From an uncultured delta proteobacterium (GTDB taxonomy: Bacteria > Desulfobacterota > Binatia > UBA9968), in assembly GCA_963727625.1 (NCBI GenBank), contig CAVSHR010000011.1, positions 288,001-352,000 on the forward strand: 64,000 bases of DNA, in the 5' to 3' direction. The translations under genes were made by a program, and so were the position numbers. The notes under the pieces are model-generated. The model saw nothing but the letters and a program-made list of their open reading frames with translations, was not told the DNA's origin and searched no databases. Of this stretch, positions 8,609-38,396 are shown in pieces (positions within the stretch are counted from its first letter, which is position 1; each line of letters begins with the position of its first letter).

Positions 8609-8693
8609 CCTTCGGCAGCCCAGCTATCAGGCATTCACCTGACCCGCGGCTTTGCGTCCCAGCCTCGCGGCTGGTTTGCCCTTGTCGAGAAGG
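8609..8693 (-). ncRNA. c-di-GMP-I (GEMM-I) riboswitch
   Basis: Minus strand reads GACAAGGGCAAACCAGCC-GCGA-GGCTGGGACGCAAAGCCGCGGGTC...GATAGCTGGGCTGCCGAA; P1 CCTTC/GAAGG. Confidence 0.92.
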
Positions 8694-8723
8694 CGGCTTG
8701 TTAATTCTTCTACGATGACTTAA

Positions 8724-8739
8724 CGCAAGCGGTGTACCA
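8724..8739 (-). promoter_or_regulatory. sigma54 promoter for riboswitch/subtilase
   Basis: TGGTACA-CCGC-TTGCG about 30 nt upstream of the aptamer. Confidence 0.7.
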
Positions 8740-9033
8740 ATAGCAGCGGGAATCAATTATAAAGTCTTCAGTCAAATTAACGGTGTATTTGGTAGGTGAC
8801 TAGGAAATTTTCAAACTTTTGGGAGGGTAGGCAAAATCCGAACGAACCCACGCAGGAACCAGCAATGTACGAGCCTCGTCAGACAAACGTACAAATCTTG
8901 TATTTTCGCTAAACGAGCCAGTGACGCGATGGAGACTCTATTCTTGCAGGAATCAAAGGCGACGCTGGCTTAGACGAACATCTAGGGTGGCTAACAATTT
9001 TTAAAATATGGTTTTTCAGGCTTCCGTGTGAAT

Positions 9034-9119
9034 CACCGGGGAGGCGCGGAGGACGCGGAGTAAAGTGTGTTCGATTAGAAATTAGTCCGGACTCTGCGAA
9101 CTTCGCGCCTCTTGTGGTG
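9034..9119. repeat. Imperfect inverted repeat (REP/MITE-like hairpin)
   Basis: CACCGGGGAGGCGCGGAGGACGCGGAG (9034-9060) pairs with CTCTGCGAACTTCGCGCCTCTTGTGGTG (9092-9119). Confidence 0.75.
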
Positions 9120-9242
9120 AATACGCCTTCACAGGTAACCCAGAAGCGCCTAAAAATATAAATAAAAAGGCCCTATCTCCTCGAAGGGATAGAACCTTTT
9201 CGCTACGCTTGTTAGAAAAGTGAAACGCTTGTTAGACGAAGC

Positions 9243-9584
9243 TTAGCTTCCGTAGTCTTCCTTGACCTGCTTGGGAGTGATGATCCAATCCCCCGTACAG
9301 CTCAGACGGGCGGTTTCGCCGATGTCTTTCCCGTTGGTGCCGCCATCGTAGTGTCCTCGCACGCCGAAGGTGCCGGTATAGAATATCGCCGCGCTCGCCT
9401 GGGTTCCGGCGCAGGTCACGGCTTTATAAGGAACATGCAGGATCGACAAAATAACGCTCCCCAGTACGAAAATGCCATTGTCCTCTTGATCGCCGGACTG
9501 TTGCGCACGGCTTGAGGCCGGCGTCAATAAAATCACCAGAGCAAAGATGGCGACCGAGATTCCACAGATGACTCGATTCTTCAT
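9243..9584 (-). CDS. Small exported/membrane hypothetical protein
   Basis: GGAGG RBS, signal peptide ending SRA-QQ, hydrophobic segment, Cys pair in the mature part. Confidence 0.7.
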   Translation of the reverse strand: MKNRVICGISVAIFALVILLTPASSRAQQSGDQEDNGIFVLGSVILSILHVPYKAVTCAGTQASAAIFYTGTFGVRGHYDGGTNGKDIGETARLSCTGDWIITPKQVKEDYGS

Positions 9585-9697: not shown

Positions 9698-11050
9698 TCA
9701 CCCCATTGGCTCAGGGATGAGATGGGCCATTGGGGAGTCTTGTGCCAGCACCTTAGTGCTCCGCTGTCGCTGGGTGACCGAGGGAGGCGGATCTAACAGG
9801 AATTTCGTCATCGCGTCAGCGGGAATCGGCCGGCAGAAATAATAGCCCTGGGCCTCATCGCACTGCAAGTTGGTAAGCAGCTTTTTCGCATCTAAGGTCT
9901 CGACGCCTTCGGCCACGATTTTGAGGCCGAGGTTATGACCCAAATCGACAATCGACTTGACGATGACCGAGCTGTCCCGGTCGCGTTCGATATTTAGGAC
10001 GAAGGATTTATCTATTTTAATGCAAGACACCGGCAGCTTGGTGAGATAGGCGAACGAGGAGTAACCCGTGCCAAAGTCATCGATCGTAAACCGCACGCCG
10101 AGTTGGCGGATTTGATTCAGTATGCGAATCACTCGTTGCGGATCGCTCATGATGCTGGTCTCGGTAATTTCTAGTTCCAGGTTGTTCGGCGGCACACCGG
10201 TGTCACTCAGCAATGCCTCGATTTGATCCGGCAGTTCTTGCGCTTCGAGGTTCCACATCGTTAGGTTCACCGCGACGCTTATGTCCAAGCCCATTTCTTT
10301 CCACTGGCGGCATTGAATAAGCGACTGCTGGAGGACCCATAAAGTCATTGGGATAATCAGCCCGGTGCGCTCGGCAACGGGAATAAATTGATCGGGAACG
10401 ATAATCCCATGCTCTGGATGCTGCCATCGCAGGAGCACTTCGACACCCGTGATGGGCCCAATGCTGAGATTCACCTTGGGTTGAAAGGTGAGAAATAGCT
10501 GATCGAGAACAATGGCTTGTCGAAGCTCGCTCATCCATTGCCGGGGTGTAAATAGACTGTGCGAACGCGCTGAATAGACCGTGCGCGGTTTTCTATTCGT
10601 CGCCGCGGCGGCGAGATCGACCTCGGCAAATTCGATCAAACTTTCCACACTATCGCCGTTTTCCGGAAACAAGGCGTTGCCGATCCGCGGCTCGAGTGCA
10701 AAGGGGACGTCGTCGATGCGCACCGGTTCGTCCAGTCGAGCCAGCAGCCGGTTGAGCACCAGATCGAGATCTTGCGGCCCCTGGACAGACTGGAGCAGCA
10801 CGGCGATATGTCCGTTACTCAGTACCGCCACTGCATCCGACTCACGCAAGCCGCTTTTTAGCCGCATCGTGACCGCATTGTTAAAGGCCATCAATCCCTT
10901 GTCGCCCGGACTCAACTCACCGGTCGAACTCTCGAAAGAAAAGACCAGCACCGCCACCTGCGGGAAGCTGTTTTTAGCCGAGCGAATCGCTTGGCGCACT
11001 CTTAATTCAAATTCGGAATTGTTTGTGGTCGAGACCGGGTTATTTTGCAT
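9698..11050 (-). CDS. c-di-GMP phosphodiesterase: degenerate GGDEF + EAL
   Basis: FQPK, EVLLRW, LEITE, DDFGTGYSS, KIDKSFV, EGVE, QGY intact; GGDEF site reads SNGHI. Confidence 0.9.
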   Translation of the reverse strand: MQNNPVSTTNNSEFELRVRQAIRSAKNSFPQVAVLVFSFESSTGELSPGDKGLMAFNNAVTMRLKSGLRESDAVAVLSNGHIAVLLQSVQGPQDLDLVLNRLLARLDEPVRIDDVPFALEPRIGNALFPENGDSVESLIEFAEVDLAAAATNRKPRTVYSARSHSLFTPRQWMSELRQAIVLDQLFLTFQPKVNLSIGPITGVEVLLRWQHPEHGIIVPDQFIPVAERTGLIIPMTLWVLQQSLIQCRQWKEMGLDISVAVNLTMWNLEAQELPDQIEALLSDTGVPPNNLELEITETSIMSDPQRVIRILNQIRQLGVRFTIDDFGTGYSSFAYLTKLPVSCIKIDKSFVLNIERDRDSSVIVKSIVDLGHNLGLKIVAEGVETLDAKKLLTNLQCDEAQGYYFCRPIPADAMTKFLLDPPPSVTQRQRSTKVLAQDSPMAHLIPEPMG

Positions 11051-11168
11051 CGGTCGAATCTCTCCGAAAGGGCGCGTGAAAAATTTGCCTTGGAGCTCCC
11101 ATGAGAATCGGACTATTTTCGGATTGATCGCTCCATAATTGCGATCCAGGTGTTTTAGCGTGTGAAAA

Positions 11169-11184
11169 AGCAACGGGTGTGCCA
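11169..11184 (-). promoter_or_regulatory. sigma54 promoter for EAL gene
   Basis: TGGCACA-CCCG-TTGCT. Confidence 0.75.
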
Positions 11185-11491: not shown

Positions 11492-13081
11492 TCAAAGGCC
11501 GCTATCTGGTTGGTACAAGGTGACCGACGCGTACTTCGCGACCAGAGACGCGTGGGCTTGGGTCTTCTTGACGAATATCGTTGCTATGCGATCTGAGTAG
11601 ATCGGCTGCCAGTCTCGTTGATCTTGAAGTGCCGCGGTCAGCGGGGAATAGGTATCAAAAATTACCCATGTAATATCGTATTTCTCTAGCTCGGCTCTCC
11701 AGCCCCTCTGGGCATTGGCGATTGTGAAGTAGGAAGTTCCGTATTTGGCGCCATACATATCAGACCGGCCGTCCATAAAGACACGATAGGCGGGCCAAGC
11801 GGCAAAGATCAGGTAATCGCCGAATTCATCGTTGTTGAACATGTTGCCGGTGATCGGCTCTTTCTTTAAAAACTCGACGGCGGCCACTGGAAAGGTTTTG
11901 CTATCAAACTGAAATTTCACTGCTCCTCCCAGCGCCAGCGCGCAAACGAAAAATAAACTGAGGGCGGGCCATAAATATCCCTTCAGGTTGAGATCTATGG
12001 CCGTCAAATTCCGGTTCCGTTTTTGGTAGGATAGAAATATTTTGTCGGGCAGCCGCGTTACGACGTGCGCCGCGGAATTGACTAGAATGGGCGCTATGAT
12101 AATGGCGTAAAGGGATACATACCTAGCCGAATAGAGGGACATATACGATAACAGCAGGACGAGGGTAGTTTCTATGACGTTGAGCGCGGACGGGGACAAC
12201 GCCAAAGCGCCGATCATCGCTATAAGCATGTATTTGAAAGGCAAAACGTCATGAAAATTTGGCGACAGGAATTCTATGACCCGGTCCATGATGAATCGAT
12301 CAGAAGTGAGCCGAAATGGAAACCAAAGAATGTCGATTCCAGAAGGATTGACTAAGCACGCCCCTAGCAGTCCCAGAAATAAGACAAAGAGTTGTCTTGC
12401 CTTGTGGCGGTATTCCTGTCGCTCCGAGGGATTGGCGCTGATGCCGTACAAAACATTACCCGCAAAGTAAATGCCGATCAGGATCAGGGCTATAATAAAC
12501 CCGCCGTGAAGGTTGACCCATAACAACATCAACAGCGGCATATAATATATGAATCGAGAGTCGTTCCGATACTGAAAGCGATCGAGACAATGATACCAGG
12601 CAACGACAAATAGGAGCGAGAAAACATGCGGGCGAGCAAGCCAATGGGACGCAGAGGTGGCGGCTGCGAGCAAAGTTACGAGAACGCACAGCAAGATGGC
12701 GTCCGATCTGGCGCGCAGCGATTGATAGAGCAGCCAGTGGGTAAAGGCGAGCAAGCTGGCGAAAAACAGGACCACCCCGGTTAGACCGAAATTTTGAAAA
12801 ATTTTCGCCATGATCACTTCGGACAGCCATTCGTGTGCCGTCCACTTTAGCGCTGGCGCATGAAAGGAATAGGGATCTTGAGTCGGCACATGCCATGTTT
12901 GCAAAATTATTTCGCCGGTTCGAATGTGATAACCGGTATCGCCGTCCCCGAGCAGGCCCTGTCCCGAGTTGAAAACGAGGACAAACAGCAGCGCGACGAA
13001 AACCATGTTGCCGATCGTCGGCAGCATTAGGGTGGATAACCCCGCTCCCTTCAATGAGAGCGTTGGACGTTCATTAGCCAT
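11492..13081 (-). CDS. Polytopic membrane protein, putative GT-C glycosyltransferase
   Basis: Many TM helices; DGDTGYHIRTG, HEWLSE, ARPH, WVNLHGGF, FMDGRSDMYG motifs. Confidence 0.65.
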   Translation of the reverse strand: MANERPTLSLKGAGLSTLMLPTIGNMVFVALLFVLVFNSGQGLLGDGDTGYHIRTGEIILQTWHVPTQDPYSFHAPALKWTAHEWLSEVIMAKIFQNFGLTGVVLFFASLLAFTHWLLYQSLRARSDAILLCVLVTLLAAATSASHWLARPHVFSLLFVVAWYHCLDRFQYRNDSRFIYYMPLLMLLWVNLHGGFIIALILIGIYFAGNVLYGISANPSERQEYRHKARQLFVLFLGLLGACLVNPSGIDILWFPFRLTSDRFIMDRVIEFLSPNFHDVLPFKYMLIAMIGALALSPSALNVIETTLVLLLSYMSLYSARYVSLYAIIIAPILVNSAAHVVTRLPDKIFLSYQKRNRNLTAIDLNLKGYLWPALSLFFVCALALGGAVKFQFDSKTFPVAAVEFLKKEPITGNMFNNDEFGDYLIFAAWPAYRVFMDGRSDMYGAKYGTSYFTIANAQRGWRAELEKYDITWVIFDTYSPLTAALQDQRDWQPIYSDRIATIFVKKTQAHASLVAKYASVTLYQPDSGL

Positions 13082-13141: not shown

Positions 13142-14329
13142 CTAACCGACCGCGTGGGTGGTGTTGGTGACTTTTTGATTCCGGGCGGTTATTCCCGGCT
13201 GCTCGGCGGCGCCAGAGCGTGATTTGACCAATCCCAATAACCATCTTGAACGTGGTTTTGGCTTATTGAAATTTAACGGCAGAACAATACGAAAGGTCGA
13301 GCCCTTTCCCAGTTCGCTTTTGACGCTGATCGTTCCGTGTATCTGTTCTAGATGCTTCTTGACAATACTCAGGCCCAAGCCGATCCCGCCTCGGGAATTT
13401 TCTGTGGAAGTCTTGTGCACTTGCATAAACGGCTCAAAAATACCCGTCAGGTGAGCCTCTGAAATGCCCGTGCCGGTGTCTTGGACTTCTGCCACAACGG
13501 AATCGTTCTGAGGCAGCCTTGCCAACCGCAAGGTAATCGATCCATGATCGGTATATTTGACGGCATTTTGCAAGAGATTGCTGATGACTTCTTTCAGTCG
13601 TGTCGCGTCGCTGCGCATGGGAATGGATTCTTTAAATATTTCCCAATGGAGATCGAGCCCCTTTTGCTTGCAGAGAAATTCAAAGGTTTCCTTCAACTCT
13701 CTTAAGACCTTACCCAGATCAAGCTCTTCTATTCGGATTGGTTGTTTCCCGGCCTCCATTCGCGAATATATCAAGATCTGATCGATCATGTTTTTAAGAT
13801 GGGTGGATTGCTTGGCCACGACTTGAAGAATTTCGAGGTGCTTGGCCTCGAGGCCGCCATACAGCCCGTCGGTGATACATTCGATGTAGCCGATAATAAC
13901 CGCCAAAGGGGTGCGCAATTCATGCGAGACCTGATTTAAGAATTCGGCCTTGAGATTGGCTAGGTGCTCCGCCTTTTCTTTCTCCTGCCGGAGGAGCTCT
14001 ATCTGCGCTTGAATCTTGCTCCTTGAATTCGACGAAACGTTGCCGATCGCTAACCCCATCATCAACATACCGAAACCGGCGATCGCGCCATAGCCAAAGA
14101 GCTCTTTGTTGTCGCCAAGCAACTCCATCAGGTTGTCGAGACGGGGGTTGCGGGCTTCTTCGGCGGGTCGTTTTATCGCTGCTTGCCTGGGCGCGCCGAA
14201 CGGCTGCGTCGATTGAGCGGCTCGGACAGTCGTTCGCCAAAAGCTGTCCACGCCGTCGGTCCAAAATGGCGCGGTTCCTGTCAAGGCAACCGACAGGGTG
14301 GCCGCGATAAGAAATTTTTGTTTTGACAT
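13142..14329 (-). CDS. Sensor histidine kinase
   Basis: SHELRTPL H-box, NLLQNAVKYT, DTGTGI, GIGLGL boxes. Confidence 0.93.
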   Translation of the reverse strand: MSKQKFLIAATLSVALTGTAPFWTDGVDSFWRTTVRAAQSTQPFGAPRQAAIKRPAEEARNPRLDNLMELLGDNKELFGYGAIAGFGMLMMGLAIGNVSSNSRSKIQAQIELLRQEKEKAEHLANLKAEFLNQVSHELRTPLAVIIGYIECITDGLYGGLEAKHLEILQVVAKQSTHLKNMIDQILIYSRMEAGKQPIRIEELDLGKVLRELKETFEFLCKQKGLDLHWEIFKESIPMRSDATRLKEVISNLLQNAVKYTDHGSITLRLARLPQNDSVVAEVQDTGTGISEAHLTGIFEPFMQVHKTSTENSRGGIGLGLSIVKKHLEQIHGTISVKSELGKGSTFRIVLPLNFNKPKPRSRWLLGLVKSRSGAAEQPGITARNQKVTNTTHAVG

Positions 14330-14335
14330 CTAATG

Positions 14336-15292
14336 TCAGGGATGTGCGGGAGATTGGCTGCTGCTCGTGGCGTTTTCAGGTTGCCAAATCTCAATTCTAT
14401 CTTTACCAGAATTCTTCGCCACATACAGCGCCTTGTCGGCATTTTCGAGCAGCTCTGGCCAGTCGGAATAGAACTTCGCAGAGGTGGAACTGACTCCGAT
14501 GCTGACGGTGAGCGCAAACGGCCGCGCCGTTGTGCCGAAAGAGCAGGTACGAATCGCCTCGTGAATCTTGCTTGCCACTTGCAGCGCGCTGTCCTGGTCG
14601 GTCTCGGGCAAAATCAATACGAATTCTTCGCCGCCGTACCTTGCCGGGAAGTCGCTTTGACGGGTTTTCTCGCGGAAGGTTTCGGCAATCTTGACCAATG
14701 CAGCGTCACCGCCGTGGTGGCCATAGGTATCATTGATTGTTTTGAAATTATCGATATCTAAAATCAGCAGGGATAGGGAATTATGGTAGCGTTTGGAACG
14801 CTCGAACTCTTCCTGAATCTTTTTTTCGAATGCGCGGCGGTTAAAAAGGCTGGTGAGAGAATCGACTTGAGTCTGATACTCGAGGTGTTGTTGGTATTGA
14901 ACGACCCGGGTACCAACACGGATCCGCGCTAAAAGTTCTGAAAACGAAAACGGTTTCGTGATGTAATCATCTGCACCTAAATCGAGTCCATGGACGCGGT
15001 CGCCTTCCTGAATTCTCGCGGTGATCAGAATTAAATAGATACTCTTCAAGGCAGGATTACTGCGGATCCGTTTGATCAGCTCGAATCCGTCCATCTTCGG
15101 CATCATAATGTCCGACAGCGCAATTTGGACATTTTCGGTCTCCAGCCTTTCGAGAGCCTCTAAACCATTTGCCGCCGTTACGACGCGGTATCCTTCGCGC
15201 TGAAGTACGATCGCCAACAGGTCTCTTTGGTCCGGATGATCTTCAATCACCAGGACGGTCAGTGGGGAGTTATCTTTTTGCACGTTGTTCAT
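14336..15292 (-). CDS. Response-regulator diguanylate cyclase (REC-GGDEF)
   Basis: REC with SDIMMP; DIDNFKTINDTYGH, RQSD I-site, GGEEF. Confidence 0.93.
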   Translation of the reverse strand: MNNVQKDNSPLTVLVIEDHPDQRDLLAIVLQREGYRVVTAANGLEALERLETENVQIALSDIMMPKMDGFELIKRIRSNPALKSIYLILITARIQEGDRVHGLDLGADDYITKPFSFSELLARIRVGTRVVQYQQHLEYQTQVDSLTSLFNRRAFEKKIQEEFERSKRYHNSLSLLILDIDNFKTINDTYGHHGGDAALVKIAETFREKTRQSDFPARYGGEEFVLILPETDQDSALQVASKIHEAIRTCSFGTTARPFALTVSIGVSSTSAKFYSDWPELLENADKALYVAKNSGKDRIEIWQPENATSSSQSPAHP

Positions 15293-15402: not shown

Positions 15403-15418
15403 AGCAATTTGCGTACCC
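15403..15418 (-). promoter_or_regulatory. Probable sigma54 promoter for cyclase/kinase operon
   Basis: GGGTACG-CAAA-TTGCT. Confidence 0.55.
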
Positions 15419-15696
15419 TACACGACGCGCATTGAAACGGCGGAGATAGGCGCAGTGCTTTGACTCACATATTTACCGTGACGCTTTGCCAAAACTCAGT
15501 AAGATCGATTGGTTTTGCGGCTATGGGCGCAAAATGGCTAAATCGGCTTGGCGCCGCCTTTCAATTAGCAACGAAATAGTTTGGCCTGGCGACTTTGTGA
15601 CACTAGATTCATGCGAGCTGTCAGATTTGTCAAGTTGGATTCCCATTGTTGTTCTCCATGAATTATAATTGTTTGAAATCTAACAAGTCTTTTTGT

Positions 15697-15712
15697 TGGC
15701 ACATAAACTGCA
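15697..15712 (+). promoter_or_regulatory. sigma54 promoter for flp pilin
   Basis: TGGCACA-TAAA-CTGCA about 80 nt before flp. Confidence 0.7.
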
Positions 15713-15792: not shown

Positions 15793-15987
15793 ATGGAGCT
15801 TTTTAAGCGCTTGTTAGTAGAGGAGGATGGCCAAGGATTGGTCGAATACACCTTGATCGTCGTTCTAGTTGCCTTGGTTTTCTGGGTTGCCATCAAAGAG
15901 ACTGATATAGGTAGCCAATTGGCCAGCGGTTGGAGCAAGGTTGCGAGTTGCGTCGGCGATCCGTCGGCATGTACTTCGGCTTCGTAG
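15793..15987 (+). CDS. flp: Flp/Fap type IVc pilin
   Basis: EEDG/QGLVEY prepilin motif, hydrophobic helix, 64 aa, upstream of tad genes. Confidence 0.92.
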   Translation: MELFKRLLVEEDGQGLVEYTLIVVLVALVFWVAIKETDIGSQLASGWSKVASCVGDPSACTSAS

Positions 15988-16016: not shown

Positions 16017-16056
16017 CGTGGCTCAGAAATGGAGTCTTTCCGTTTCTGAGCCACGT
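16017..16056 (+). terminator. Strong hairpin after flp (terminator or mRNA stabiliser)
   Basis: CGTGGCTCAGAAATGGA...TCCGTTTCTGAGCCACG. Confidence 0.75.
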
Positions 16057-16088
16057 TATTGCATGGAGCCGAATAATGCTAAATTTTA

Positions 16089-16123: not shown

Positions 16124-16690
16124 TTGATTAAAAATGTTGTTTTAAACAATTTGACACCTTCAGACGCGATTATATGCACGGTTAGTGGGCTCGCGGCGTT
16201 CTTCGATATGAGGTTAAGGAGAATTCCGAACTGGCTCATCGCGTCCGGTTTGCTCTGCGGGGTCGTCTTGAACTATTTCCAAGGAGACGGGCGTTGGCTC
16301 CAAAGCGTTTTTGGGTTTGCCGTCGGGGTCGCTGTGCTGGTCTTGCCATTTGCCTTTGGATGGATCGGGGCGGGCGACGTTAAGTTTTTTGGCGTCGTCG
16401 GTGCTCTTTTGGGGATATCTTGGCTGCCACGGGTGTTTTTCTATTCTGCTCTTGTTGCCGGAGTGATTGCGGTTGGCTATTTGGTTGTCGGTTTGTCGAA
16501 ATTTTCCCGCTTAAAATCCTATTGGTTGGACGTTAAAACCGCCGTTCTGAGTATGGGGAATGTGTTACCGGAAACCGCGTCTGTGCGTAATCATGACTCT
16601 GGTGCCTCAGTGCCGTGGGGTGTTGCCTTCGCGGCTGGAATGATTATCGCATACTATTTTGATCCGAGCGGTCGATGGTCCGGATTTTAA
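16124..16690 (+). CDS. cpaA: Prepilin peptidase (A24, CpaA/TadV)
   Basis: FDMRLRRIPNWL, GAGDVK, VPWGVA; start uncertain. Confidence 0.9.
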   Translation: MIKNVVLNNLTPSDAIICTVSGLAAFFDMRLRRIPNWLIASGLLCGVVLNYFQGDGRWLQSVFGFAVGVAVLVLPFAFGWIGAGDVKFFGVVGALLGISWLPRVFFYSALVAGVIAVGYLVVGLSKFSRLKSYWLDVKTAVLSMGNVLPETASVRNHDSGASVPWGVAFAAGMIIAYYFDPSGRWSGF

Positions 16691-16773
16691 ATATGGACAA
16701 ATTCGAACAATGACGATTTCTAAGATTTTGCGGTAATTACTTGGCAAATCATTACGCTTAGTGAGGAGCTGAT

Positions 16774-17601
16774 ATGCAGAATAGACTAAAAATTGCGTTA
16801 GTCGTGGCGGTGTTTTTCGGTTTAATCGCCGCCTACGGGATATACAATTTTCTCAGCAGTCAACAAAAACAGGCGGATTCACTCCGAGCCGCAAACCAAG
16901 ATATCGTGGTTGCAGCGAAAGATATTCCGCCCGGGACGACCCTCAATGAGGAGGCGATAAAAAAGGGATTGATTAAGACCACGCCGTGGCCCAAAACATC
17001 GATCCCGGCAGGTGCGTTTTCTTCTCCTCAGCAGGTGATCGGCAAGGTGAATCGGGTAAAGATTCTAGCCAACGAGCCGCTTTTGGAGTCCCGTCTTGCC
17101 GGTGAGGGCGCGGGGCTTACGGTCCGGTTGGATCCGGGCAAGCGCGCGTTAGCTTTGTCGGTGAACGAGATCGTCGGGGTCAGTGGTTTTATCGTTCCCG
17201 ATGATCGGGTCGATGTTATTTTGACCACGAGCCCATTAGGAACGGGGCAGGATACAAAAATTTCAAAAATCATTATGCAAAATAAACGGGTTCTATCCGT
17301 TGCGCAGAGCACGGAGCAAAAGGATGGGAAACCCCAACTCGCGCGTTCGATCACGTTAGAAGTCACTCCTGAAGAAGCGCAAAAGCTGACTTTAGCAACG
17401 CAGGAAGGGCAGATTGTTCTCGCCTTGCGCGGTCTCGGCGATGATGCGCCGGTAGTCACCAAAGCCAGCAACAAGCGAGATATCTTGTCGCTCGCTTCGG
17501 TGTCCCCTAAGCCATCCTCCGCAGGTGCGGTTGCGCCGCCGCCGGAAAAATATCAGGTCGAGGTCATTATGGGTAGTAAGCGAAACGTGGTGGAATTCTA
17601 A
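16774..17601 (+). CDS. cpaB: Flp pilus assembly protein CpaB/RcpC
   Basis: SAF domain (VVAAKDIPPG), GVSGFIVPDDRVDV, ITLEVTPEEA. Confidence 0.93.
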   Translation: MQNRLKIALVVAVFFGLIAAYGIYNFLSSQQKQADSLRAANQDIVVAAKDIPPGTTLNEEAIKKGLIKTTPWPKTSIPAGAFSSPQQVIGKVNRVKILANEPLLESRLAGEGAGLTVRLDPGKRALALSVNEIVGVSGFIVPDDRVDVILTTSPLGTGQDTKISKIIMQNKRVLSVAQSTEQKDGKPQLARSITLEVTPEEAQKLTLATQEGQIVLALRGLGDDAPVVTKASNKRDILSLASVSPKPSSAGAVAPPPEKYQVEVIMGSKRNVVEF

Positions 17602-17619
17602 ATGGGAAGGGGAGAGTTC

Positions 17620-19125
17620 ATGAGTATTCGTTGTTTAGTCCGGGGGCGGCTAAATAGAATTGTCCTGGCGGCGACGATGGCGTTTGCGTTGACGGCGCAA
17701 ACGGCACTAGCGCAGCCGCAGATGGCGCCGACAATTACCGTAACGGTAAACAAATCGATGGTGTTTAGGCTCGCTGAGAAGGTTAAGACCGTACAGGTCT
17801 CGCAGCCGCAAGTGGCGGACGTGCGAGTGATTAGGCCGAATCAGCTTTTGATCAATGGCAAGGGTATCGGTACCACTTCGCTGATTCTTTTTGACGAAAA
17901 GGGCGAGGTTACCAATTTTGATTTGATCGTCACTCCGGATATCTCAGCCATGCGCGCGCAGCTACGCTCGATTTTTCCCGATGAAAAGATCGAAGTTTCG
18001 ACTTCGGGCCCTGCGATTGTTCTGAGAGGCGAGGTGTCAAACGAGACGGTCTATGACAGGGTGCTCGAGATCGCTACAACCTACCTCCCGCCCAAACCTC
18101 CCGCCGCGGTTGCGCCGTCGACCACTACGATTACTGTCAATCCAACTACCACGACCCCACAGTTTGGTTCCGGCTTCAAGGGTGGCGGTCAGGTGGCCTT
18201 TGAGGATGCGTCGGATATGACATCTGTAAACCGCTTCGGGAACAGAAAAACCGAAGGAATCGTGGATTTGCTGGTCATCAAGGAGATTCGCCAGATCGAG
18301 CTCGATGTTATCGTTGCGGAAGTGTCACTTAGCAAGGCGCGTGAGATCGGTTTTAATTTTCGCTACAGCGGACCAACCCAGGTCCAATCGGCAACATCTG
18401 CCCTCGGCTCGGTGTCCGACAGTGGCAGTAACCCAACGGTTTCATTGCCCGCATTCTTGGGCGCACCAACCGGCGCCTTCACTTATATTAATGGTGCTTA
18501 TTCGCTCGTATCGCTCTATCGATTATTGCAAAATAAGGATCTCTCTGAAATTCTCGCGCAGCCGCGCCTGGTGATCAAAAACGGCCGCGCCGGCGGGTTT
18601 TTATCCGGCGGCGAGATTCCCATACAGCAGGTTACGGCCAACAACTCAACCGTCGAGTTTAAAGAATTCGGCGTTCGGCTTAATTTTGTTCCGACGATCA
18701 CCTGGTCCAACCGGATTGATCTTAAGGTTCTCCCTGAGGTGAGCGAGCCCAGCTCAAGTCTAATTGTCAACGGCATTCCGGCGATTACCACGAAACGCAC
18801 GCTGAGCCAGGTGGAGATGAAAGAGGGGGAAAGCCTCATTATCGGCGGTTTGTTGGACCGGAGAATCGTAAAAAACCTTGCCAAGTTTCCTATCTTGGGC
18901 GACGTGCCGATTTTGGGAGCGCTGTTTAGAAGCACGCGGTTTAGCAACAAGGAGACGGAGCTGATTTTTGTAATTACTCCGCGCATTGTCCGTACGATGA
19001 AGCCGGGCGAAAAACCGAATCTTCCCGGAATAGAAAAATATGACGATCCGGATATGCGCCAGGTGCCCGTGCCCATGGGACCGCAAGCGAGAAAATCCGC
19101 GACTCCAGGAGCCTCGATTCCGTGA
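17620..19125 (+). CDS. cpaC: Tad secretin CpaC/RcpA
   Basis: FLSGGEIP, EFGVRL, PILGDVPILGALFRS, ELIFVITP secretin motifs. Confidence 0.93.
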   Translation: MSIRCLVRGRLNRIVLAATMAFALTAQTALAQPQMAPTITVTVNKSMVFRLAEKVKTVQVSQPQVADVRVIRPNQLLINGKGIGTTSLILFDEKGEVTNFDLIVTPDISAMRAQLRSIFPDEKIEVSTSGPAIVLRGEVSNETVYDRVLEIATTYLPPKPPAAVAPSTTTITVNPTTTTPQFGSGFKGGGQVAFEDASDMTSVNRFGNRKTEGIVDLLVIKEIRQIELDVIVAEVSLSKAREIGFNFRYSGPTQVQSATSALGSVSDSGSNPTVSLPAFLGAPTGAFTYINGAYSLVSLYRLLQNKDLSEILAQPRLVIKNGRAGGFLSGGEIPIQQVTANNSTVEFKEFGVRLNFVPTITWSNRIDLKVLPEVSEPSSSLIVNGIPAITTKRTLSQVEMKEGESLIIGGLLDRRIVKNLAKFPILGDVPILGALFRSTRFSNKETELIFVITPRIVRTMKPGEKPNLPGIEKYDDPDMRQVPVPMGPQARKSATPGASIP

Positions 19126-19191
19126 GTTGGAGTTCAACGTGGCATTTGGGTTTGATCAAGGCGAATCGTTGCAACGAGATAAAGCGAAATA

Positions 19192-31264: not shown

Positions 31265-32041
31265 TCATTCCCGGTTCAAGCGCGCCATCGCCGCCTTTAG
31301 GCTCGCCCGCATGCGCTCGAGGGAGCGGCCCAACTCGCCGATTTCGTCGTTGCTTTGAATCGGCACCGTGGCATCGAGACGGCCGCGGCTAATGTCGTCG
31401 GCGATCGCTTTTAAATCCAAAATCGGCCGGATGGTTTTGCTCGCCAGCACGATCGAAAGGATCACGCCAAGCACCAGACAGGCAACGATCAGGCCGATGA
31501 TCGGCACGAGCGTCCAGCGCACGTTATCCTGCACCGTTTGCGCCCAAAGCCCGACCCGCACGACACCGAGCTGGCCGTCGAGCAGGGGCGCGCGGGTTTC
31601 GTAGACGTTCTTGCCGCGCGCGCGGGTGACGCGCATCGACGCCGCGGTGCCGCCGGAGTCCTTCAACTCATCCGGAAAGGGGTTCATGCTGCTCGCCAGA
31701 ACTTCCCCCTTAGGGTCCTGGATAAAAGCGTAAGCGACGCCGTCCAGGCGCCCGTACTTGGCGACCAGCGCGTCGAGCTGGAGCACGCTCTTACGCGAAA
31801 CGAAGCCAGCCGCGGCGTCGGCGAGGTTGGTGGCAAGAGCGTTGGAGCGCAGGTCGACCTGTTTTTGCAACGCGGCGGTTGTGAAAAAATAAACAATGCC
31901 GATGACGAGCAGGCCCAGCACCAGGATCAGACCGCTGAAAGCGGTGATGATTTTCCAACGCAGGCCGCCGCGCTGCCAATGGATGCCCAGCGGTTTGGCG
32001 ATTTTGGAGCTTTCCATAGGAGATGCAGATTCCTGAGGCAT
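31265..32041 (-). CDS. Two-TM membrane protein ending in a HAMP domain with no output domain
   Basis: TM-sensor-TM then IRPILDL..ADDISRG..DEIGELGRSLERMR, stop 12 aa later. Confidence 0.85.
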   Translation of the reverse strand: MPQESASPMESSKIAKPLGIHWQRGGLRWKIITAFSGLILVLGLLVIGIVYFFTTAALQKQVDLRSNALATNLADAAAGFVSRKSVLQLDALVAKYGRLDGVAYAFIQDPKGEVLASSMNPFPDELKDSGGTAASMRVTRARGKNVYETRAPLLDGQLGVVRVGLWAQTVQDNVRWTLVPIIGLIVACLVLGVILSIVLASKTIRPILDLKAIADDISRGRLDATVPIQSNDEIGELGRSLERMRASLKAAMARLNRE

Positions 32042-33235: not shown

Positions 33236-34489
33236 CTATGGATTCTTTTCTTTGATTACCTCTGGCTTAAGATTGGTCGGCGTATCGCTCGTCGCCTGTG
33301 CCGGAGCAAGGCTCTCAGCGGCGACCGGCATGCGCGGCGGCGGGCTTTTGAACAGATAAAATGCGCCCAACACCAAGCCCAAAACAATAAACGCGGCAAT
33401 CGCCGCGATTTTATTGAATTTCGACGGTTTAGTGTGCGAATAGAGATCGTTTTCGCCGTAGTCCTTGATGATGCTTTTCAACTGGCGGTCGAGTTCGCCG
33501 CGATTCTTGATACTCGGAACAAAGGTTTCGACGGCGGTTTGATGATCCTCTGCTATTTCCGGTGGCGGCAGCGCCAGGGGCTTCTCGGCATCGTTGTTCA
33601 CGGCGACCAGAGCGACGCTTGCGATGGCCGGCAATCGTTCGATCGAGTTTGTTTGCGCGGCAATTGCCGTGGCGTCTTTGGGCGTCGGTTCAATGGGCTT
33701 GGACGGCTGATTTGAAACGACGAATTCGCCGTAGGTGTCGATCAGGTCGTTTAACAGCCGCTCGTCGAACTGGTTCTTGTTTGGCGCGGTCTTTTGCTGG
33801 TTTGGGTTGGCGTCGCGGTTGCCGGTAGGTTCTGCTTTCGGTGCAGCGGTTGCCTCGCGTCGCGGCGCCGCGCCTGCCTCGGGGGCGAGCGAAAGATCGG
33901 GAGCAAGCACCACGTCATCGGCCGGCGTCGTGTTGTTGACCCGGATTTGCGGCGCCGGCGCTTCTCCTCCCCGTAGTTCGGCACCCACGCTCGGCTGCGG
34001 GACCGACGCCGTGCAGGATTGCCCAGCGGTATCGCAAACAGGCCCGATCGAAGGGGGGGCTTGCAGGGGTGCACCGAAATCGCTTGAAATGGATTGCGCG
34101 CCGGTGCGAACGGCCTGCAGCAACAGATACATGCGGATCAGCTTGCCGGCCTGGATGATAGCTTGTAACTTGGGATGATTGTCGAGGCGGTTCGGAGCGA
34201 TTAGATCAAAATCTGCTTGGGGAATCTCGCCGACGAATCGATTTATGTCGGCAACCGACGCCCGCAGTTTTTCGACGAGAGTCAATTGTGCTTGAGAGGC
34301 TTTTAGCTGTTGAATCAGCGCGCGGGTTTTCTGTTCGGCCCGGTTTGCGTCTTCCAGGGAACAATCATCGAGGCGCTGTTGCAACCCATGGACCGAGCTG
34401 AGCACCTTGCCAAAGCCGTTGGCCTTTGGCGGACGCGAATTTTCCGTCCCGGGCTGGGCGGGTGTGACTTGTTTTTGGGCCGGCTCCAT
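33236..34489 (-). CDS. Hypothetical protein with Pro-rich linker and C-terminal TM
   Basis: 417-aa ORF; near-repeated FDERLLNDLIDTYGE / LDRQLKSIIKDYGE; TM near C-terminus. Confidence 0.7.
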   Translation of the reverse strand: MEPAQKQVTPAQPGTENSRPPKANGFGKVLSSVHGLQQRLDDCSLEDANRAEQKTRALIQQLKASQAQLTLVEKLRASVADINRFVGEIPQADFDLIAPNRLDNHPKLQAIIQAGKLIRMYLLLQAVRTGAQSISSDFGAPLQAPPSIGPVCDTAGQSCTASVPQPSVGAELRGGEAPAPQIRVNNTTPADDVVLAPDLSLAPEAGAAPRREATAAPKAEPTGNRDANPNQQKTAPNKNQFDERLLNDLIDTYGEFVVSNQPSKPIEPTPKDATAIAAQTNSIERLPAIASVALVAVNNDAEKPLALPPPEIAEDHQTAVETFVPSIKNRGELDRQLKSIIKDYGENDLYSHTKPSKFNKIAAIAAFIVLGLVLGAFYLFKSPPPRMPVAAESLAPAQATSDTPTNLKPEVIKEKNP

Positions 34490-34549: not shown

Positions 34550-34565
34550 AGCAAAATGGTTGCCA
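34550..34565 (-). promoter_or_regulatory. sigma54 promoter for the 34489-29615 gene run
   Basis: TGGCAAC-CATT-TTGCT about 60 nt before ATG. Confidence 0.7.
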
Positions 34566-34884
34566 GGAATACCTTTGTGGAAAGCCAAGTAATTTCGGTG
34601 CCCTGAGGGGAAGTTTGTCCTTAAATTGTGAGCTCTTGCCACAAATCCTGTTCGCCACGAACAAAAATGTACGTGGCCAAAAAGCGCTATGTTTCTGGTT
34701 TTTCTAAAGAAATGAACCGCGGACCAGTAGATGACCGACGCCGGACGACTGACTACCGACGATGGACGCTGCTCGCAATGTCGGCTGACGGGAGACCGAT
34801 GACCGGGGACCGATGCACTCTGCTCTTTGCGCCATGCCCTATGCTCTTTCCAAACTGCCTGCTGCCCCTTGCGTGAAAACTTCC

Positions 34885-35642
34885 TTAACGCGGGGTGAGG
34901 CTCAGCAGCTTTTTTACCGGATCCACCGAGACCTGGAAGCGACCGAGAAAATCCATGCCGAGCAGCCCCTCGAAAGTCGGATTGCCGACGGGGTCGTGTA
35001 TCGAAACGGCCATATCGCCAACCTCGGCGTCGCCGACCTTCACTGAGTCTATGCGGGCGACCCGGGTGCGCACGGTTCCGCCGATACCCCTAAGATACTT
35101 CGATCCGATGTAGGGGATGCGCAGGCTAGCGGCTACTTTCCCAGTGATGATGGTCATTCCCGCGCCGGTATCAAGCACTAGGTTGGCGGTCAGCGAACCA
35201 TTGAAGGTTACCGGCACGATGACAGATCGACCGCTGAAGTTAATCGGTACGATGACCGTGCCGCGGGGCGCGGCGGAAGCAGGGCCGGTCGGAATATCGA
35301 CGGCGATTCCGCTCGGCTCGGCCGGCAGATTACGGAAGAATTTAGCTGCTTTGTTAGCTTGGTCCCCGTTGTCTTGTTTAATCCAGCCGACAATACCGCT
35401 CTGGCTTTTCACAAGATACCATTTGACACCGCCCGCGCCTTGGCTCTCGGCGATCGGCGTAACGTTCTCGCCGGCGGGCAGCATTCCAAGCGAAGGAGCG
35501 GCTTGGTCCGCAGCGGCGTAAATTTTAAGCTCAGAGGAGTGCGACGATTGACGATCTGGCGGTTCGCTCTGTGCGGATGGGAGAGAAGAGAGGAGTAAGA
35601 CAAGCGCAAATAGACTGATCGCAGGCTTGACCGCGGCGCCAT
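34885..35642 (-). CDS. Exported retropepsin-like aspartyl protease with N-terminal SH3b-like domain
   Basis: LVLDTGAGMT, GLLGMDFL; KWYLVK..GIVGWI; hydrophobic signal; true start unclear. Confidence 0.8.
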
Positions 35643-35659
35643 GACCGCCGCCGAGCGGC

Positions 35660-36940
35660 TTAGATTGCCAGGGCAAATTTTTCCAGTTTGCGGTAAAGCG
35701 TGCGCGTCGAAATGCCCAGCGCCTCCGCGGCCTTTGCTTTGTTTCCATTGGTCTGTCGAAGCGCCTCCTCGATGACGCTGCGCTCGCCCTCTTCGATATT
35801 GCGGATCGCGTTGCCGCCGATCTCTTCGCGGCGCCCGGTCGCATAATGCTGCAGATTCATCGCCAGATCGCTGATGGCAATATAATCGCTGTCGGAAACC
35901 ATCACGGCGCTTTCGATCACGCTTTTAAGCTCCCGGATGTTGCCCGGCCACGGATAGTCGAGAAACAGTGCTTTGGTCGAGCCGGTGAGTTTTTTAAGCG
36001 GCTTTTGGAATTGATTGCACGCCTGGTAGACGAAATTGGCGATCAACAAGATCATGTCTTCCCGGCGGTCCCGGAGCGGCGGCAGGATGATGCGCGCGCT
36101 GTTCAAGCGAAAATAAAGGTCTTTGCGAAAGCCGGTGCCCTGAATCGCCTCCTCCAACTCCTTGTTGGTCGCGGCGATGATCCGCACATCACAGGTCTTG
36201 GGCGATGATTCACCGACTCGATAATATTGGCGCGTCTCGAGGAAGCGCAGCAGCTTGAGCTGGATCGACGGAGCTAGGTCGCCGATCTCATCCAGGAAGA
36301 GCGTGCCGCCTTCGGCGGCTTCGACGAAGCCTTTTTTGTTGCGGTCGGCGCCGGTAAAAGCGCCCTTCACGTAGCCGAAGAGCTCGCTTTCGACCAACGT
36401 CTCGGGAATCGCCGTCAGGTTGCACCCGACAAAAGGCTTATCGGCGCGCGGACCGCGGGCGTGGACGTATTGCGCCATGATTTCCTTGCCGGTGCCCGTT
36501 TCGCCGGTAATGAGCACGGTAATATCGTGCATGGCGTAACGATTGGCGAGGTTGACGACCTCGTAGAACTGGGGTGTGTCGCCGATCATCACCGGCGCTT
36601 TGACGACATGCGGGTTTTGACTATCCGCCGGGGTATTGTTGGCCTGGCCGAACAGGCCGTAGAGTCCCTGAAGGTCTAGCGGGTCGTAGCAAATCAGTGC
36701 CAGGTGCGCCGACTTCTGTCGCAACCGGTCGGTAAAATTGTTCCAACCGGCGCCGTTGCAGGCCGTAAGGTCGGCAAAGATATACTTTTGTTGCTCGATC
36801 GGAAACGCCGCAAGCACTCGTTCGGCTTCCTCGACCGAGCGGCTCACGTGGACCGAACAATCGCGCGACTCAACGAGTTTGGAGATGCCGTTTAGCGGGG
36901 CATCGGTCGGGTGAATGATCAGCGCTAACGGTTTTACCAT
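35660..36940 (-). CDS. sigma54-dependent enhancer-binding protein with degenerate REC domain
   Basis: GETGTGKE, ESELFG, GAFTGA, LFLDEIG, WPGNIREL, Fis HTH. Confidence 0.95.
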   Translation of the reverse strand: MVKPLALIIHPTDAPLNGISKLVESRDCSVHVSRSVEEAERVLAAFPIEQQKYIFADLTACNGAGWNNFTDRLRQKSAHLALICYDPLDLQGLYGLFGQANNTPADSQNPHVVKAPVMIGDTPQFYEVVNLANRYAMHDITVLITGETGTGKEIMAQYVHARGPRADKPFVGCNLTAIPETLVESELFGYVKGAFTGADRNKKGFVEAAEGGTLFLDEIGDLAPSIQLKLLRFLETRQYYRVGESSPKTCDVRIIAATNKELEEAIQGTGFRKDLYFRLNSARIILPPLRDRREDMILLIANFVYQACNQFQKPLKKLTGSTKALFLDYPWPGNIRELKSVIESAVMVSDSDYIAISDLAMNLQHYATGRREEIGGNAIRNIEEGERSVIEEALRQTNGNKAKAAEALGISTRTLYRKLEKFALAI

Positions 36941-36944
36941 CCGA

Positions 36945-38396
36945 TTACTCTTGGGCCGGCGTATTGGGGATGATCACCATGTTCTCGAGCGAGTCGGCGA
37001 GAAGCTGGCGACTGATCCGGGGCGCCGTGCCAAGATAATTACATGCCGCGATCACATGTTCAGCGATAAATTTCGGGTGAAAGCCCGCGAAGGGGATTTT
37101 GTGCTTAAGGTAAAACGTGTTGAGCAAGTAAGCCATGATTTCTTCGGAAAATTCAAGCCCGTAGGAATCGCAAATGCGTTGGAAGATCTCCTTGAACTCA
37201 TCCACCGTCGGCGGATTAATTTTCATTTTGTAATGGACGCGTCTTAGCTGAGCGGGGTCCATCAACTCTTCCGGCGGAAAGTTCGTCGCGAATATGACCA
37301 GTTGATCGAACAACACCGAAAACTTTTTACCGGTATGAAGCGTGAGATAATCGAGCTTACGCTCGAGGGGGAAGATCCAGCGATTCAAAAGCTCGTGCGG
37401 CCGCACCCGCTGGCGACCAAAATCGTCGATGACGAAAACCCCGCCGATCGCTTTCATCTGCAATGGCGCCTCATAGTATTTCGAATGCGGGTCGAAATCG
37501 AGATCGAGCATTTCCAAGGTGAGTTCGCCGCCGGTAATCACGTAGGGACGTTTGCAACGCACCCAGCGGGGATCATGTTCCAAATGCGGCAAAAACATCG
37601 GGTTGGAATCGCCGTTGGCGCCGTTCCCAGTGGGGAAATCGGTGTGGACCGAGGGGTCGTAAACCTTTATGACCTGGCCGTCGGCTTCGATGGCGTAGGG
37701 CACGTAAACTGGCTGTTCGAAGGCGCTGACGAGAGCCTCGGCGATGGAGGTTTTTCCGTTGCCGGCGGAACCGTAAATCAGAATGGCGCGGCCGGAATTG
37801 GACGCCGGCCCGAGGCGGCGCACGACTTCCTCTGAAAGAACCAGATGAGTCATGGCCTTCTTGAGCTTTTCAATGCTGATGACTTCATTGGTGATCGTCT
37901 GCTTCTGAACTTGCAATTGGTAATTTTCCAGCGGGACCGGAATCGGGCCGATATACTCGCACCGGCGCAGCGCTTCGCTAGCTCTTTCTTTGCCCGCGTT
38001 GGTCAGCGCATAGCGCATGATATTGTAGTTTTTTTCCGATGGACCGCGAACTTCAACGAGCGCGTCTTTCTTGGCGAAGTTTAACAGGTCCTCGACCACC
38101 GGGCGGGTGAGCTTGATTTGCTCGGACAGCTCCGGAATGGTCTGCAGCTGCGAGATGTACATGGTGCGCAGCAGGCTATTGAGCAAGAAATTGGTGTCGA
38201 GACCGGTTTGTTCCACGGTCTTGGGGACTAGCGGCGGCTCTTGGAGAACCGCCTCGAGGTTGCCGCGGCTGATATAGCCGAGCGCGACGAGGTTATCGCC
38301 GATCCGGCCGCCGGCAATTTTCTGCTGATGGACAACCTTGCCGAGTTGCTCTTCGGTAATGATGCCCTTTGTTAATAGAAGTTCGCCGATCGCCAT
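36945..38396 (-). CDS. AAA+ ATPase with N-terminal MshEN-like domain
   Basis: IGELLLTKGIITEEQL..QQ-linker-RIGDNLVALGYIS; GSAGNGKT Walker A; VIDDFGRQ Walker B. Confidence 0.8.
   Translation of the reverse strand: MAIGELLLTKGIITEEQLGKVVHQQKIAGGRIGDNLVALGYISRGNLEAVLQEPPLVPKTVEQTGLDTNFLLNSLLRTMYISQLQTIPELSEQIKLTRPVVEDLLNFAKKDALVEVRGPSEKNYNIMRYALTNAGKERASEALRRCEYIGPIPVPLENYQLQVQKQTITNEVISIEKLKKAMTHLVLSEEVVRRLGPASNSGRAILIYGSAGNGKTSIAEALVSAFEQPVYVPYAIEADGQVIKVYDPSVHTDFPTGNGANGDSNPMFLPHLEHDPRWVRCKRPYVITGGELTLEMLDLDFDPHSKYYEAPLQMKAIGGVFVIDDFGRQRVRPHELLNRWIFPLERKLDYLTLHTGKKFSVLFDQLVIFATNFPPEELMDPAQLRRVHYKMKINPPTVDEFKEIFQRICDSYGLEFSEEIMAYLLNTFYLKHKIPFAGFHPKFIAEHVIAACNYLGTAPRISRQLLADSLENMVIIPNTPAQE

Follow-up and report, generated by a model that had tools for sequence, protein, structure and literature searches.

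A Tad/Flp pilus cluster of an uncultured Binatia bacterium between two conserved arms with predicted sigma-54-type promoters and a candidate c-di-GMP receptor

The route from cyclic di-GMP (c-di-GMP) to Tad pili is only partly understood, and the Tad ATPase CpaF is without the MshEN sensor that is carried by the MSHA and type IVa pilus ATPases. The PprAB two-component system adjoins the tad locus of Pseudomonas aeruginosa and controls flp-tad, and in the FleQ, VpsR, and BerB systems, it is the sigma-54 enhancer-binding protein (EBP) itself that binds c-di-GMP. Control of Caulobacter Tad pili by c-di-GMP is the topic of PMC6581867, and PMC3333781 describes binding of the sigma-54-dependent regulator DVU2114 upstream of the Flp-type pilin genes beside cpa/tad in Desulfovibrio vulgaris. 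Here, we analyze a Tad/Flp pilus cluster and its flanking genes in a stretch of 64,000 nucleotides (the window), which corresponds to positions 288001-352000 of contig C11 of genome G000, an assembly of 6.62 Mb in 15 contigs from an uncultured soil bacterium. Proteins 88-89% identical to the ATPase discussed below carry the source label "Candidatus Binatia bacterium".

We put at slightly under an even chance the reading that this Tad/Flp cluster is flanked by two conserved sigma-54-type regulatory arms, in which an ATPase and an EBP read c-di-GMP and set transcription. In such a model, a kinase would phosphorylate the receiver domain of a diguanylate cyclase and c-di-GMP would rise; the signal would be read by the MshEN domain of the ATPase, which, with its co-transcribed EBP, would then set how strongly flp-tad, the cyclase operon, and the gene for an EAL phosphodiesterase are transcribed from their -24/-12 promoters. 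Control of the cyclase operon would provide positive feedback and control of the EAL gene negative feedback, and a riboswitch ahead of a secreted subtilase would be a real but loosely attached extra output. The model builds on the domains, on a gene order that relatives keep, on promoter elements that are likewise conserved, on rpoN being encoded in the genome, and on a recurrent link between the ATPase family and Tad; each binding and activation step in it we infer. The genes concerned are as follows.

15793-15987, + strand: flp pilin gene, encoding MELFKRLLVEEDGQGLVEYTLIV..., divergent from the cyclase gene across 500 bp
16124-26279, + strand: tad/cpa operon, identified by Pfam and synteny
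14336-15292, - strand: REC-GGEEF diguanylate cyclase (Pfam Response_reg, 108.5 bits; GGDEF, 161 bits)
13142-14329, - strand: histidine kinase (Pfam HisKA and HATPase_c), starting 6 nt past the cyclase stop
9698-11173, - strand: phosphodiesterase with a degenerate GGDEF and an EAL domain (243.6 bits, profile positions 3-236 of 236)
36945-38396, - strand: ATPase with an MshEN domain (residues 1-53), a winged-helix-like domain (~60-145), and an AAA+ domain (~165-478)
35660-36940, - strand: sigma-54 EBP (Sigma54_activat, 217.1 bits; GAFTGA; HTH_8, 56.9 bits, a Fis-type helix-turn-helix [HTH])

An initial annotation of this DNA had described a self-contained c-di-GMP circuit wrapped around the Tad pilus, and all four of its named parts (a riboswitch, an EAL enzyme, a cyclase with a kinase, and an MshEN-like ATPase) are present where it had placed them. 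Its cyclase co-transcribed with the kinase and divergent from flp agrees with the 6-nt gap between the former two genes and the 500 bp between cyclase and flp. The cyclase active site reads GGEEF, and RQSD, an RxxD I-site at the spacing known from PleD, lies five residues upstream. The best NCBIfam match is the PleD family (E 6.2e-82), but because its 275.8 bits fall below the equivalog cut-off of 474, the protein is by this score only a family-level member of the PleD-like group. The phosphodiesterase had been annotated as an EAL enzyme with a dead GGDEF, and this too fits: the EAL domain is full, and the partial GGDEF domain (32.9 bits, profile positions 61-156) reads SNGHI at its site. Reading the translation by eye, we found the catalytic EAL-domain motifs EVL, NLT, EITE, DDFGTGYSS, KIDK, EGVE, and QGYYF. 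The gene likely starts at the ATG at 11050.

The tad/cpa operon encodes a prepilin peptidase (cpaA), RcpC/CpaB, a secretin (cpaC), CpaE, CpaF, TadB, TadC, and a DUF192 protein, together with two TadE proteins, a Tad-domain (tadG-like) protein, and a 219-aa open reading frame (ORF). The set by which a Tad/Flp system is recognized is present, namely Flp with G/xxxxEY, prepilin peptidase, secretin, CpaE/TadZ, CpaF/TadA, TadB, TadC, and TadE/F-type minor pilins. CpaF scored 353 bits against the TadA family TIGR03819, slightly under the cut-off of 373, and domain scans of the window's CpaF found no MshEN domain. Flp is 76-89% identical to its counterparts in the same genus and 46-48% identical to those in genus g9 and family f9. 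Directly 3' of flp and 5' of cpaA, a hairpin (GTGGCTCAGAAA...TTTCTGAGCCAC; window 16020-16058, + strand), partly listed by the terminator scan, may be an attenuator setting the ratio of pilin to machinery. Elsewhere in the genome, a lone cpaF paralogue of 70% identity (contig C4, 56814-58232) has no other tad genes detected beside it and carries a sigma-54-like element, TGGCACGGCCGTTGCG, 57 nt upstream.

Promoter elements were sought with the pattern TGGCAC-N5-TTGCW, in which GG and GC stand 10 nt apart, and the DNA ahead of every mapped orthologue was scored by one rule. The elements in the window, with a candidate enhancer, are listed here.

15697-15712, + strand: flp sigma-54 promoter element TGGCACATAAACTGCA, lying 81-96 nt before the flp ATG, with one mismatch
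11169-11184, - strand: EAL-gene sigma-54 promoter element TGGCACACCCGTTGCT, a perfect match to the consensus
15403-15418, - strand: cyclase-operon sigma-54-like element GGGTACGCAAATTGCT, a weaker GG-N10-GC match
8724-8739, - strand: riboswitch sigma-54-like element TGGTACACCGCTTGCG, a weaker GG-N10-GC match, 35 nt upstream of the aptamer
34550-34565, - strand: sigma-54-like element of a gene for a 417-aa protein, a weaker GG-N10-GC match found in 2/2 regions
15594-15634, + strand: candidate enhancer (EBP-binding) block TTTGTGACACTAG-N12-TGTCAGATTTGTCAAG, a footprint in seven aligned intergenic regions

The flp element is conserved upstream of nine of the ten flp copies, from three genera and two families, the exception being the second flp of G257. 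The EAL element is kept in all six usable orthologous regions, despite diverged flanks (a seventh region is cut by the edge of its locus), and the cyclase element recurs as NGGTAY-N5-TTGC in 8/8 orthologous regions, genus g9 included. The riboswitch element was found in both regions available, the equivalent in G012 being TGGAACACGCCTTGCT at the same place. In alignments of the cyclase-flp and EAL upstream regions, GG and GC are invariant amid diverged surroundings. Control upstream regions, scored by the same rule, yielded no match for the EBP (0/21), DUF4388 (0/15), NMT1 (0/14), and DsbA (0/9) genes and a single match each for a 529-aa gene (1/12), g04 (1/7), cpaA (1/7), a 541-aa gene (1/8), and the aspartyl protease gene (1/8). 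The ATPase gene gave 4/20, at scattered positions, and the control matches were of score 8.

The candidate enhancer block lies 60-120 nt upstream of the flp promoter, a distance expected of an enhancer; it includes GTCAGATTTGTC at 15620-15631, and TGTCA is repeated in G259. The EAL regions of relatives have GACA-N4-TGTC palindromes at a similar distance from the promoter, and a common enhancer motif for the flp and EAL promoters is plausible on these alignments. Genome-wide, a loose form of the motif GWCANNNNTGTC is paired with a promoter-like site in 13 cases against about five by a rough estimate, which is not a shuffle.

All window proteins were mapped by tblastn onto the DNA around the cpaF, cyclase, and ATPase genes of relatives. 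The left-arm order (113-aa gene, EAL gene, 529-aa gene, kinase, cyclase, and divergent flp-tad) recurs in 6/6 same-genus loci (G018, G012, G009, G017, G023, and G020), with the kinase above the mapping thresholds in five of them. The right-arm order holds wherever contigs reach: NMT1/LysM, Cache-HAMP, DUF4388, (417-aa), aspartyl protease, EBP, ATPase, (SPOR), and GatB. The EBP directly follows the ATPase in all 20 relatives' loci in which both are visible. Tad genes lie on the ATPase-EBP contig in eight relatives: G018, G017, G019, G014, G011, G023, G259 (genus g9), and G257 (family f9). In G259, a cyclase of 70% identity and a kinase are divergent from flp, and the operon of ATPase, EBP, and protease is ~36 kb from tad, with four 529-aa paralogues and a subtilase between. 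In G257, the ATPase-EBP pair is 10 kb from flp-tad with different intervening genes and no orthologous cyclase. The pair is thus found 10-36 kb from a Tad operon in three genera and two families, and the synteny across related genomes that had been proposed as a check of the linkage turns out to hold, for the left arm in the six same-genus loci plus G259 and for ATPase-EBP with Tad on the contig in the eight relatives named.

The same family f9 genome has tadE/tadG in place of the cyclase divergent from flp (L040, 12440, - strand), preceded by GGGTAC-N5-TTGCT. Because the layout there is the same with other genes in it, the divergent arrangement of two predicted sigma-54 promoters is older than its cargo.

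In the right arm, residues 3-53 of the ATPase match NCBIfam NF053729, "cyclic di-GMP-binding domain, MshE-related", with 52 bits (cut-off 38, E 4.5e-14), and the N-terminus aligns in register with MshE residues 10-60 in PDB 5HTL (E 9.1e-6), as expected from the MshEN-like N-terminus annotated initially. As described in PMC5013675, an MshEN domain is two 24-residue motifs of the form RLGxxLLxxGLLxxxxLxxxLxxQ joined by a 5-residue spacer. The ATPase follows this layout (A2-Q25, K26-G30, and R31-P54), and its spacing and all its Gly and hydrophobic positions fit. The orthologues of genus g9 and family f9 begin MPLG, with Pro at the motif 1 Arg, which the relaxed form of the motif in that paper permits; several members of the wider ATPase family begin MRIG or MRLG. 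Changes of Arg9 are reported in PMC5013675 to have shifted affinity at most fivefold. Binding of c-di-GMP by this domain is plausible from its motif. The structure of the ATPase was predicted with a pLDDT of 91.3 and a pTM of 0.86; among solved structures, the highest scores went to a Pyrococcus protein that is uncharacterised (8p49, Z 17.3) and to the ATPase domains of archaeal LonB (Z 15.5), and generic AAA+ proteins, EBPs included, scored Z 12-14. The winged-helix-like domain shows a weak sequence likeness to MarR/DeoR HTH chains (E 0.3-0.8). The ATPase stop lies 4 nt before the start of the EBP, whose N-terminus is receiver-like and is unrecognised by Pfam. When the EBP and the ATPase were modelled together from alignments A3 and A2, the predicted complex scored 0.00, which is uninformative either way.

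Several observations weigh against this reading. Over the whole window, sigma-54-like matches number 35 against 29.8 expected, not above chance, and the test applied above is therefore one of position and conservation. The window also has a sigma-70-like site, TTCCCA-18-TATAAT, ahead of flp, though relatives do not keep its -10 hexamer. In the window itself, the EAL region is only a loose fit to GACA-N4-TGTC, and no exact common enhancer motif was established: the window has two copies of GWCANNNNTGTC, with 2.2 expected, and no 8- or 9-mer is common to at least three of the five upstream regions. Genome G000 encodes ~28 EBPs, so the assignment of this particular EBP to these promoters, which we infer, rests on linkage. 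In the MshEN domain, the motif 1 Arg is replaced by Ala2 and motif 2 ends in Pro, not Gln, and the genus g9 ATPase has Leu for the second Arg. Synteny within a genus is weak evidence, with simple descent a possible cause, and the contigs of many metagenome-assembled genomes (MAGs) break near NMT1; where they continue (G018, G017, G019, G014, G011, and G023), Tad follows, and in G024, no Tad match was found in the mere 2.5 kb that its contig runs further. In G014, the DNA that separates tad from the EBP includes a tandem duplication (L018, 2806-14073) of the genes for DsbA, a 541-aa protein, NMT1/LysM, Cache-HAMP, and DUF4388, and such duplication may be the cause of the breaks near NMT1.

The wider family of the ATPase raises another explanation, unlikely in our estimate, in which the MshEN-AAA+ ATPase has the Tad machine or the pilins as its direct target (for instance, during assembly, remodelling, or retraction), gated by c-di-GMP, and the EBP is independent. 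The core family is large, with 711 cluster representatives at E <= 1e-30; Pfam has no entry dedicated to it, and none of its close relatives with a solved structure has a known function. Among 28 members scanned, other N-terminal inputs were FHA (four), PAS (three), and HDOD (one); swapped inputs of this kind, MshEN among them, are as in signal-gated motors. We took 80 loci of family members from GTDB genomes and mapped the window proteins onto each. In seven of the 80, the ATPase lies in or beside a Tad operon, and all seven are without MshEN. Five of these relatives directly follow tadC/DUF192 in the same orientation, four in Acidobacteriota/Vicinamibacteria (L079, L083, L094, and L104) and one in Gemmatimonadota (L125); the ATPase adjoins cpaF in the Chloroflexota locus L117 and is near cpaB/cpaC in a Rhizobiaceae MAG (L119). 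By our own estimate, not a computed control, the chance of a random gene lying within 10 kb of cpaF is <1%. In a quick tree, the Tad-linked cases and the clade of the window fall in four separate places on both main branches. An EBP lies within 10 kb in only one of the six loci with the ATPase after tadC/DUF192 or adjoining cpaF. Because the Tad-embedded relatives are mostly without an adjoining EBP, action on the machine suits them better than action on transcription, and to this extent they count against our model. The Lon-B/RuvB-like AAA+ fold of the structural matches to 8p49 and LonB likewise belongs to a macromolecule-remodelling class, and N-domain gating of the MSHA pilus by MshE offers a model for such direct action. 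In the lineage of the window, however, the ATPase is encoded outside the tad operon and is coupled to the EBP by the 4-nt gap, the pairing being kept in 20/20 genomes, and its winged-helix-like domain would suit DNA binding. A further point against a c-di-GMP-reading regulator of Tad is that none of the 32 MshEN-bearing loci has Tad within 10 kb, their neighbors being varied and mutually unrelated; one of the 32 (L049) comes from the clade of the window, on a contig that at 9 kb is too short for the purpose, and the rest are from other phyla.

The regulatory reading must also be set against the c-di-GMP inventory of the genome. We counted 14 GGDEF matches in 13 genes, six EAL matches, all in GGDEF-EAL genes, seven c-di-GMP-I riboswitches, three MshEN matches (one below the cut-off), and one PilZ. 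With HD-GYP left out, this gives 24 elements (13 GGDEF/EAL genes, seven riboswitches, three MshEN, and one PilZ), of which four fall inside 29.8 kb of the window. Only 61 of 20,000 random placements (0.3%) gave a cluster of at least four, and the c-di-GMP parts of the window, which the initial annotation had placed within ~30 kb around the tad genes, are thus clustered beyond chance. Clustering is nonetheless a habit of this genome and the site is not unique, because contigs C3, C5, and C6 hold further c-di-GMP gene clusters. On C5, three GGDEF genes lie inside 8 kb. On C3 (12246-36656), a riboswitch, a GGDEF gene, an EBP gene, and a gene for a 577-aa protein that matches MshEN and is probably an ATPase of the PilB/MshE type lie inside 25 kb. 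On C6 (33462-34989), a c-di-GMP-I riboswitch is immediately upstream of a GGDEF-EAL gene, an arrangement that would place an enzyme of c-di-GMP under the control of c-di-GMP itself.

These other clusters lend something to the view, which we consider distinctly unlikely, that there is no dedicated circuit and that separate c-di-GMP units working on a cell-wide pool lie near Tad through common ancestry of the neighborhood. The unrelated neighbors of MshEN-ATPase relatives in other phyla point the same way, as does a riboswitch unit that is beside the block in only two of seven genomes. Common ancestry of the neighborhood would not readily account for a promoter type that flp, the cyclase operon, and the EAL gene have in common and that is conserved across genera, for an ATPase-EBP pair that family f9 keeps close to Tad although the genes between them are rearranged, or for the recurrence of the ATPase family in the Tad operons of four phyla. 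The circuit is in any case not self-contained, as had been claimed, given 11 other GGDEF/EAL genes in G000 alongside six more riboswitches.

The riboswitch and the gene that it precedes are the part of the picture least tied to the pilus.

8610-8689, - strand: c-di-GMP-I (GEMM-I) riboswitch aptamer (RF01051, 73.7 bits, gathering 35; model positions 1-87)
6744-8514, - strand: subtilase with a fervidolysin-type pro-domain, Peptidase_S8, and Ig-like domains (Pfam)

The GEMM-I assignment made earlier was sound, the scores for RF01051 and for RF03167 (c-di-GMP-I-GGC; 72.9 bits, gathering 59) both being above gathering. We take the "GGC" in the latter name to denote a variant G at a ligand-contact position. 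The GGC-model consensus is GGGACGCGAAgCc and the window reads GGGACGCAAAGCC, with A instead of G after GACGC, as in G012; the GGC variant was rejected on this ground, and the aptamer is therefore best read as of the canonical c-di-GMP-I class, with ligand binding predicted. It lies in the 5' leader ~95 nt upstream of the subtilase GTG (8514), on the same strand, an arrangement also found in G012 (orthologous aptamer at L006, 401-479). The fold of the leader (z -1.21) gave no clear expression platform, and no U-tract terminator was seen between the aptamer and the subtilase start. The subtilase gene is read in two frames, 8514-8092 and 8195-6744, with a one-base shift near 8140 between ...ISAPS and WDLTTG.... 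Each orthologue has both domains in one ORF of 570-577 aa (P0276, for example, is 81% identical), and the window gene is therefore frameshifted; this could be a pseudogene in the organism or an assembly error. Among sequencing runs, one DNA run contained 0.05 of the words sampled from the stretch, and no RNA run containing it was listed. The riboswitch is next to the 113-aa gene in only G000 and G012 (2/7 genomes with that flank sequenced). We accordingly hold the riboswitch-protease unit to be a separate c-di-GMP output that happens to border the block, even though it has the sigma-54-like promoter type of the block. The inclusion of secreted proteases in the original module thus stands in part: the aptamer-protease unit is real, but it adjoins the block in 2/7 genomes and its protease gene is frameshifted. 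At the position of this unit in G000 and G012, G023 has a match to a group II intron domain (RF02001, 48.5 bits; L025, 7259-7428). On C4 (1136718-1136890), TGGCATCAACGTTGCT, a strong sigma-54-like element, stands ~55 nt ahead of another c-di-GMP-I riboswitch of the genome, and this organism may habitually transcribe riboswitch leaders from sigma-54 promoters.

The remaining genes of the two arms are listed below.

9243-9584, - strand: small protein of 113 aa, hydrophobic at its N-terminus and assigned to no family, next after the EAL gene in 6/6 same-genus loci
11492-13081, - strand: 529-aa polytopic membrane protein with no family, whose paralogues recur near Tad in genus g9
34885-35844, - strand: aspartyl protease of the retropepsin-like type that carries an SH3 domain; its gene follows that of the EBP, and the listed ORF overlaps the 3' end of the EBP gene
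33236-34489, - strand: 417-aa protein of low complexity, assigned to no family, with a hydrophobic helix at its C-terminus

An atlas search with the 529-aa protein gave only unnamed clusters at 0.99; GT-C families came at 0.92, with few common features, and a likeness to GT-C glycosyltransferases is a weak language-model lead only. This lead was the sole basis that we found for the glycosylation included in the initial annotation. BLASTP found no likeness between the 529-aa and 541-aa membrane proteins. The aspartyl protease probably starts later than listed, and it also follows the EBP in G259, G152, and L049. A 721-aa protein with a C-terminal peptidoglycan-binding SPOR domain (window 38559-40724, + strand) is encoded divergently from the ATPase and is kept in G017, G006, G013, and L049. 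Between tad and the EBP, a 258-aa Cache and HAMP sensor without an output domain (31265-32041, - strand) is always followed by the NMT1/LysM protein and preceded by the DUF4388 protein; the three are kept in the genus and are absent in genus g9 and family f9. Further downstream, five tRNA genes and a small signal recognition particle RNA (48778-59610, + strand) are unrelated to the Tad and c-di-GMP genes.

Overall, the initial interpretation is supported in part: the parts first annotated are real, clustered, and linked in relatives, their self-containment did not hold, and the case for glycosylation and for the attachment of the riboswitch-protease unit is weakened. The sigma-54 promoters and the EBP, absent from that annotation, are the most concrete wiring of the cluster.

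A broader proposal, rather doubtful at present, is that the winged-helix-AAA+ family is an unrecognised Tad accessory whose MshEN form serves here as a c-di-GMP receptor and gates, with the EBP, a self-tuning sigma-54 regulon. If true, that regulon would comprise the pilin, the pilus machine, and their own cyclase and phosphodiesterase, and would act as a local c-di-GMP loop in attachment to surfaces. Already known are local c-di-GMP modules, proteases under riboswitch control, signalling genes by tad, c-di-GMP-responsive sigma-54 activators, and sigma-54-dependent pilins. In the literature searched, from which subscription journals were largely outside, we found no MshEN-AAA+ protein and no AAA+ accessory ATPase in Tad systems; new within that scope are the MshEN-winged-helix-AAA+ protein with its EBP partner, the recurrence of its family in Tad operons, and a single promoter type before pilin, cyclase, and phosphodiesterase. 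A separate, widespread AAA+ ATPase that is found repeatedly in Tad operons, and that in the window has MshEN and an EBP partner, is a testable candidate for the missing link between c-di-GMP and Tad. From the conserved -24/-12 promoters, a wiring scheme that includes its own feedback can likewise be drawn and tested, for a lineage that only metagenomes have revealed, and the riboswitch-protease unit is an incidental part of the picture first drawn.

Comparison with described systems places the locus between several of them. With PleD-type cyclases, the window cyclase has in common a predicted activation by phosphorylation, GGEEF, the RxxD I-site, and an association with Tad pili; it differs in having one receiver domain and in being encoded divergently from flp with its own kinase. 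Like PprAB of P. aeruginosa, the kinase and cyclase are a signalling pair beside flp-tad, which PprAB controls; the output of PprAB is a DNA-binding response regulator, whereas that of the window pair is a diguanylate cyclase. The aptamer is a full-length match to both c-di-GMP-I models, RF01051 and RF03167, in the 5' leader of a secreted protease gene. With the DVU2114 system, the likeness is that of an EBP and a sigma-54-dependent promoter for a Flp/Tad pilin, the promoter in the window being predicted. DVU2114 is presented in PMC3333781 as a two-component response regulator, whereas the window EBP has an N-terminus unrecognised by Pfam and an MshEN-ATPase partner; unlike the DVU2114 case as described, the window has the same promoter type before the cyclase and phosphodiesterase as well. 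With MshE of the Vibrio cholerae MSHA pilus (5HTL), the window ATPase has in common an N-terminal 53-residue two-motif module on an ATPase linked to a type IV filament. MshE is, however, a T2SSE secretion ATPase serving the MSHA pilus, and the window ATPase is an uncharacterised Lon-B/RuvB-like AAA+ protein with a winged-helix-like domain that neighbors Tad, whose own CpaF is without MshEN. Finally, FleQ (with FleN), VpsR, and BerB (structures 5exx, 8p53, and 7v2b being among the fold matches) resemble the proposed system in tying c-di-GMP to the sigma-54 transcription of surface and adhesion genes; unlike in them, the recognizable binding domain in the window belongs to another protein, the ATPase, whose gene immediately precedes that of the EBP.

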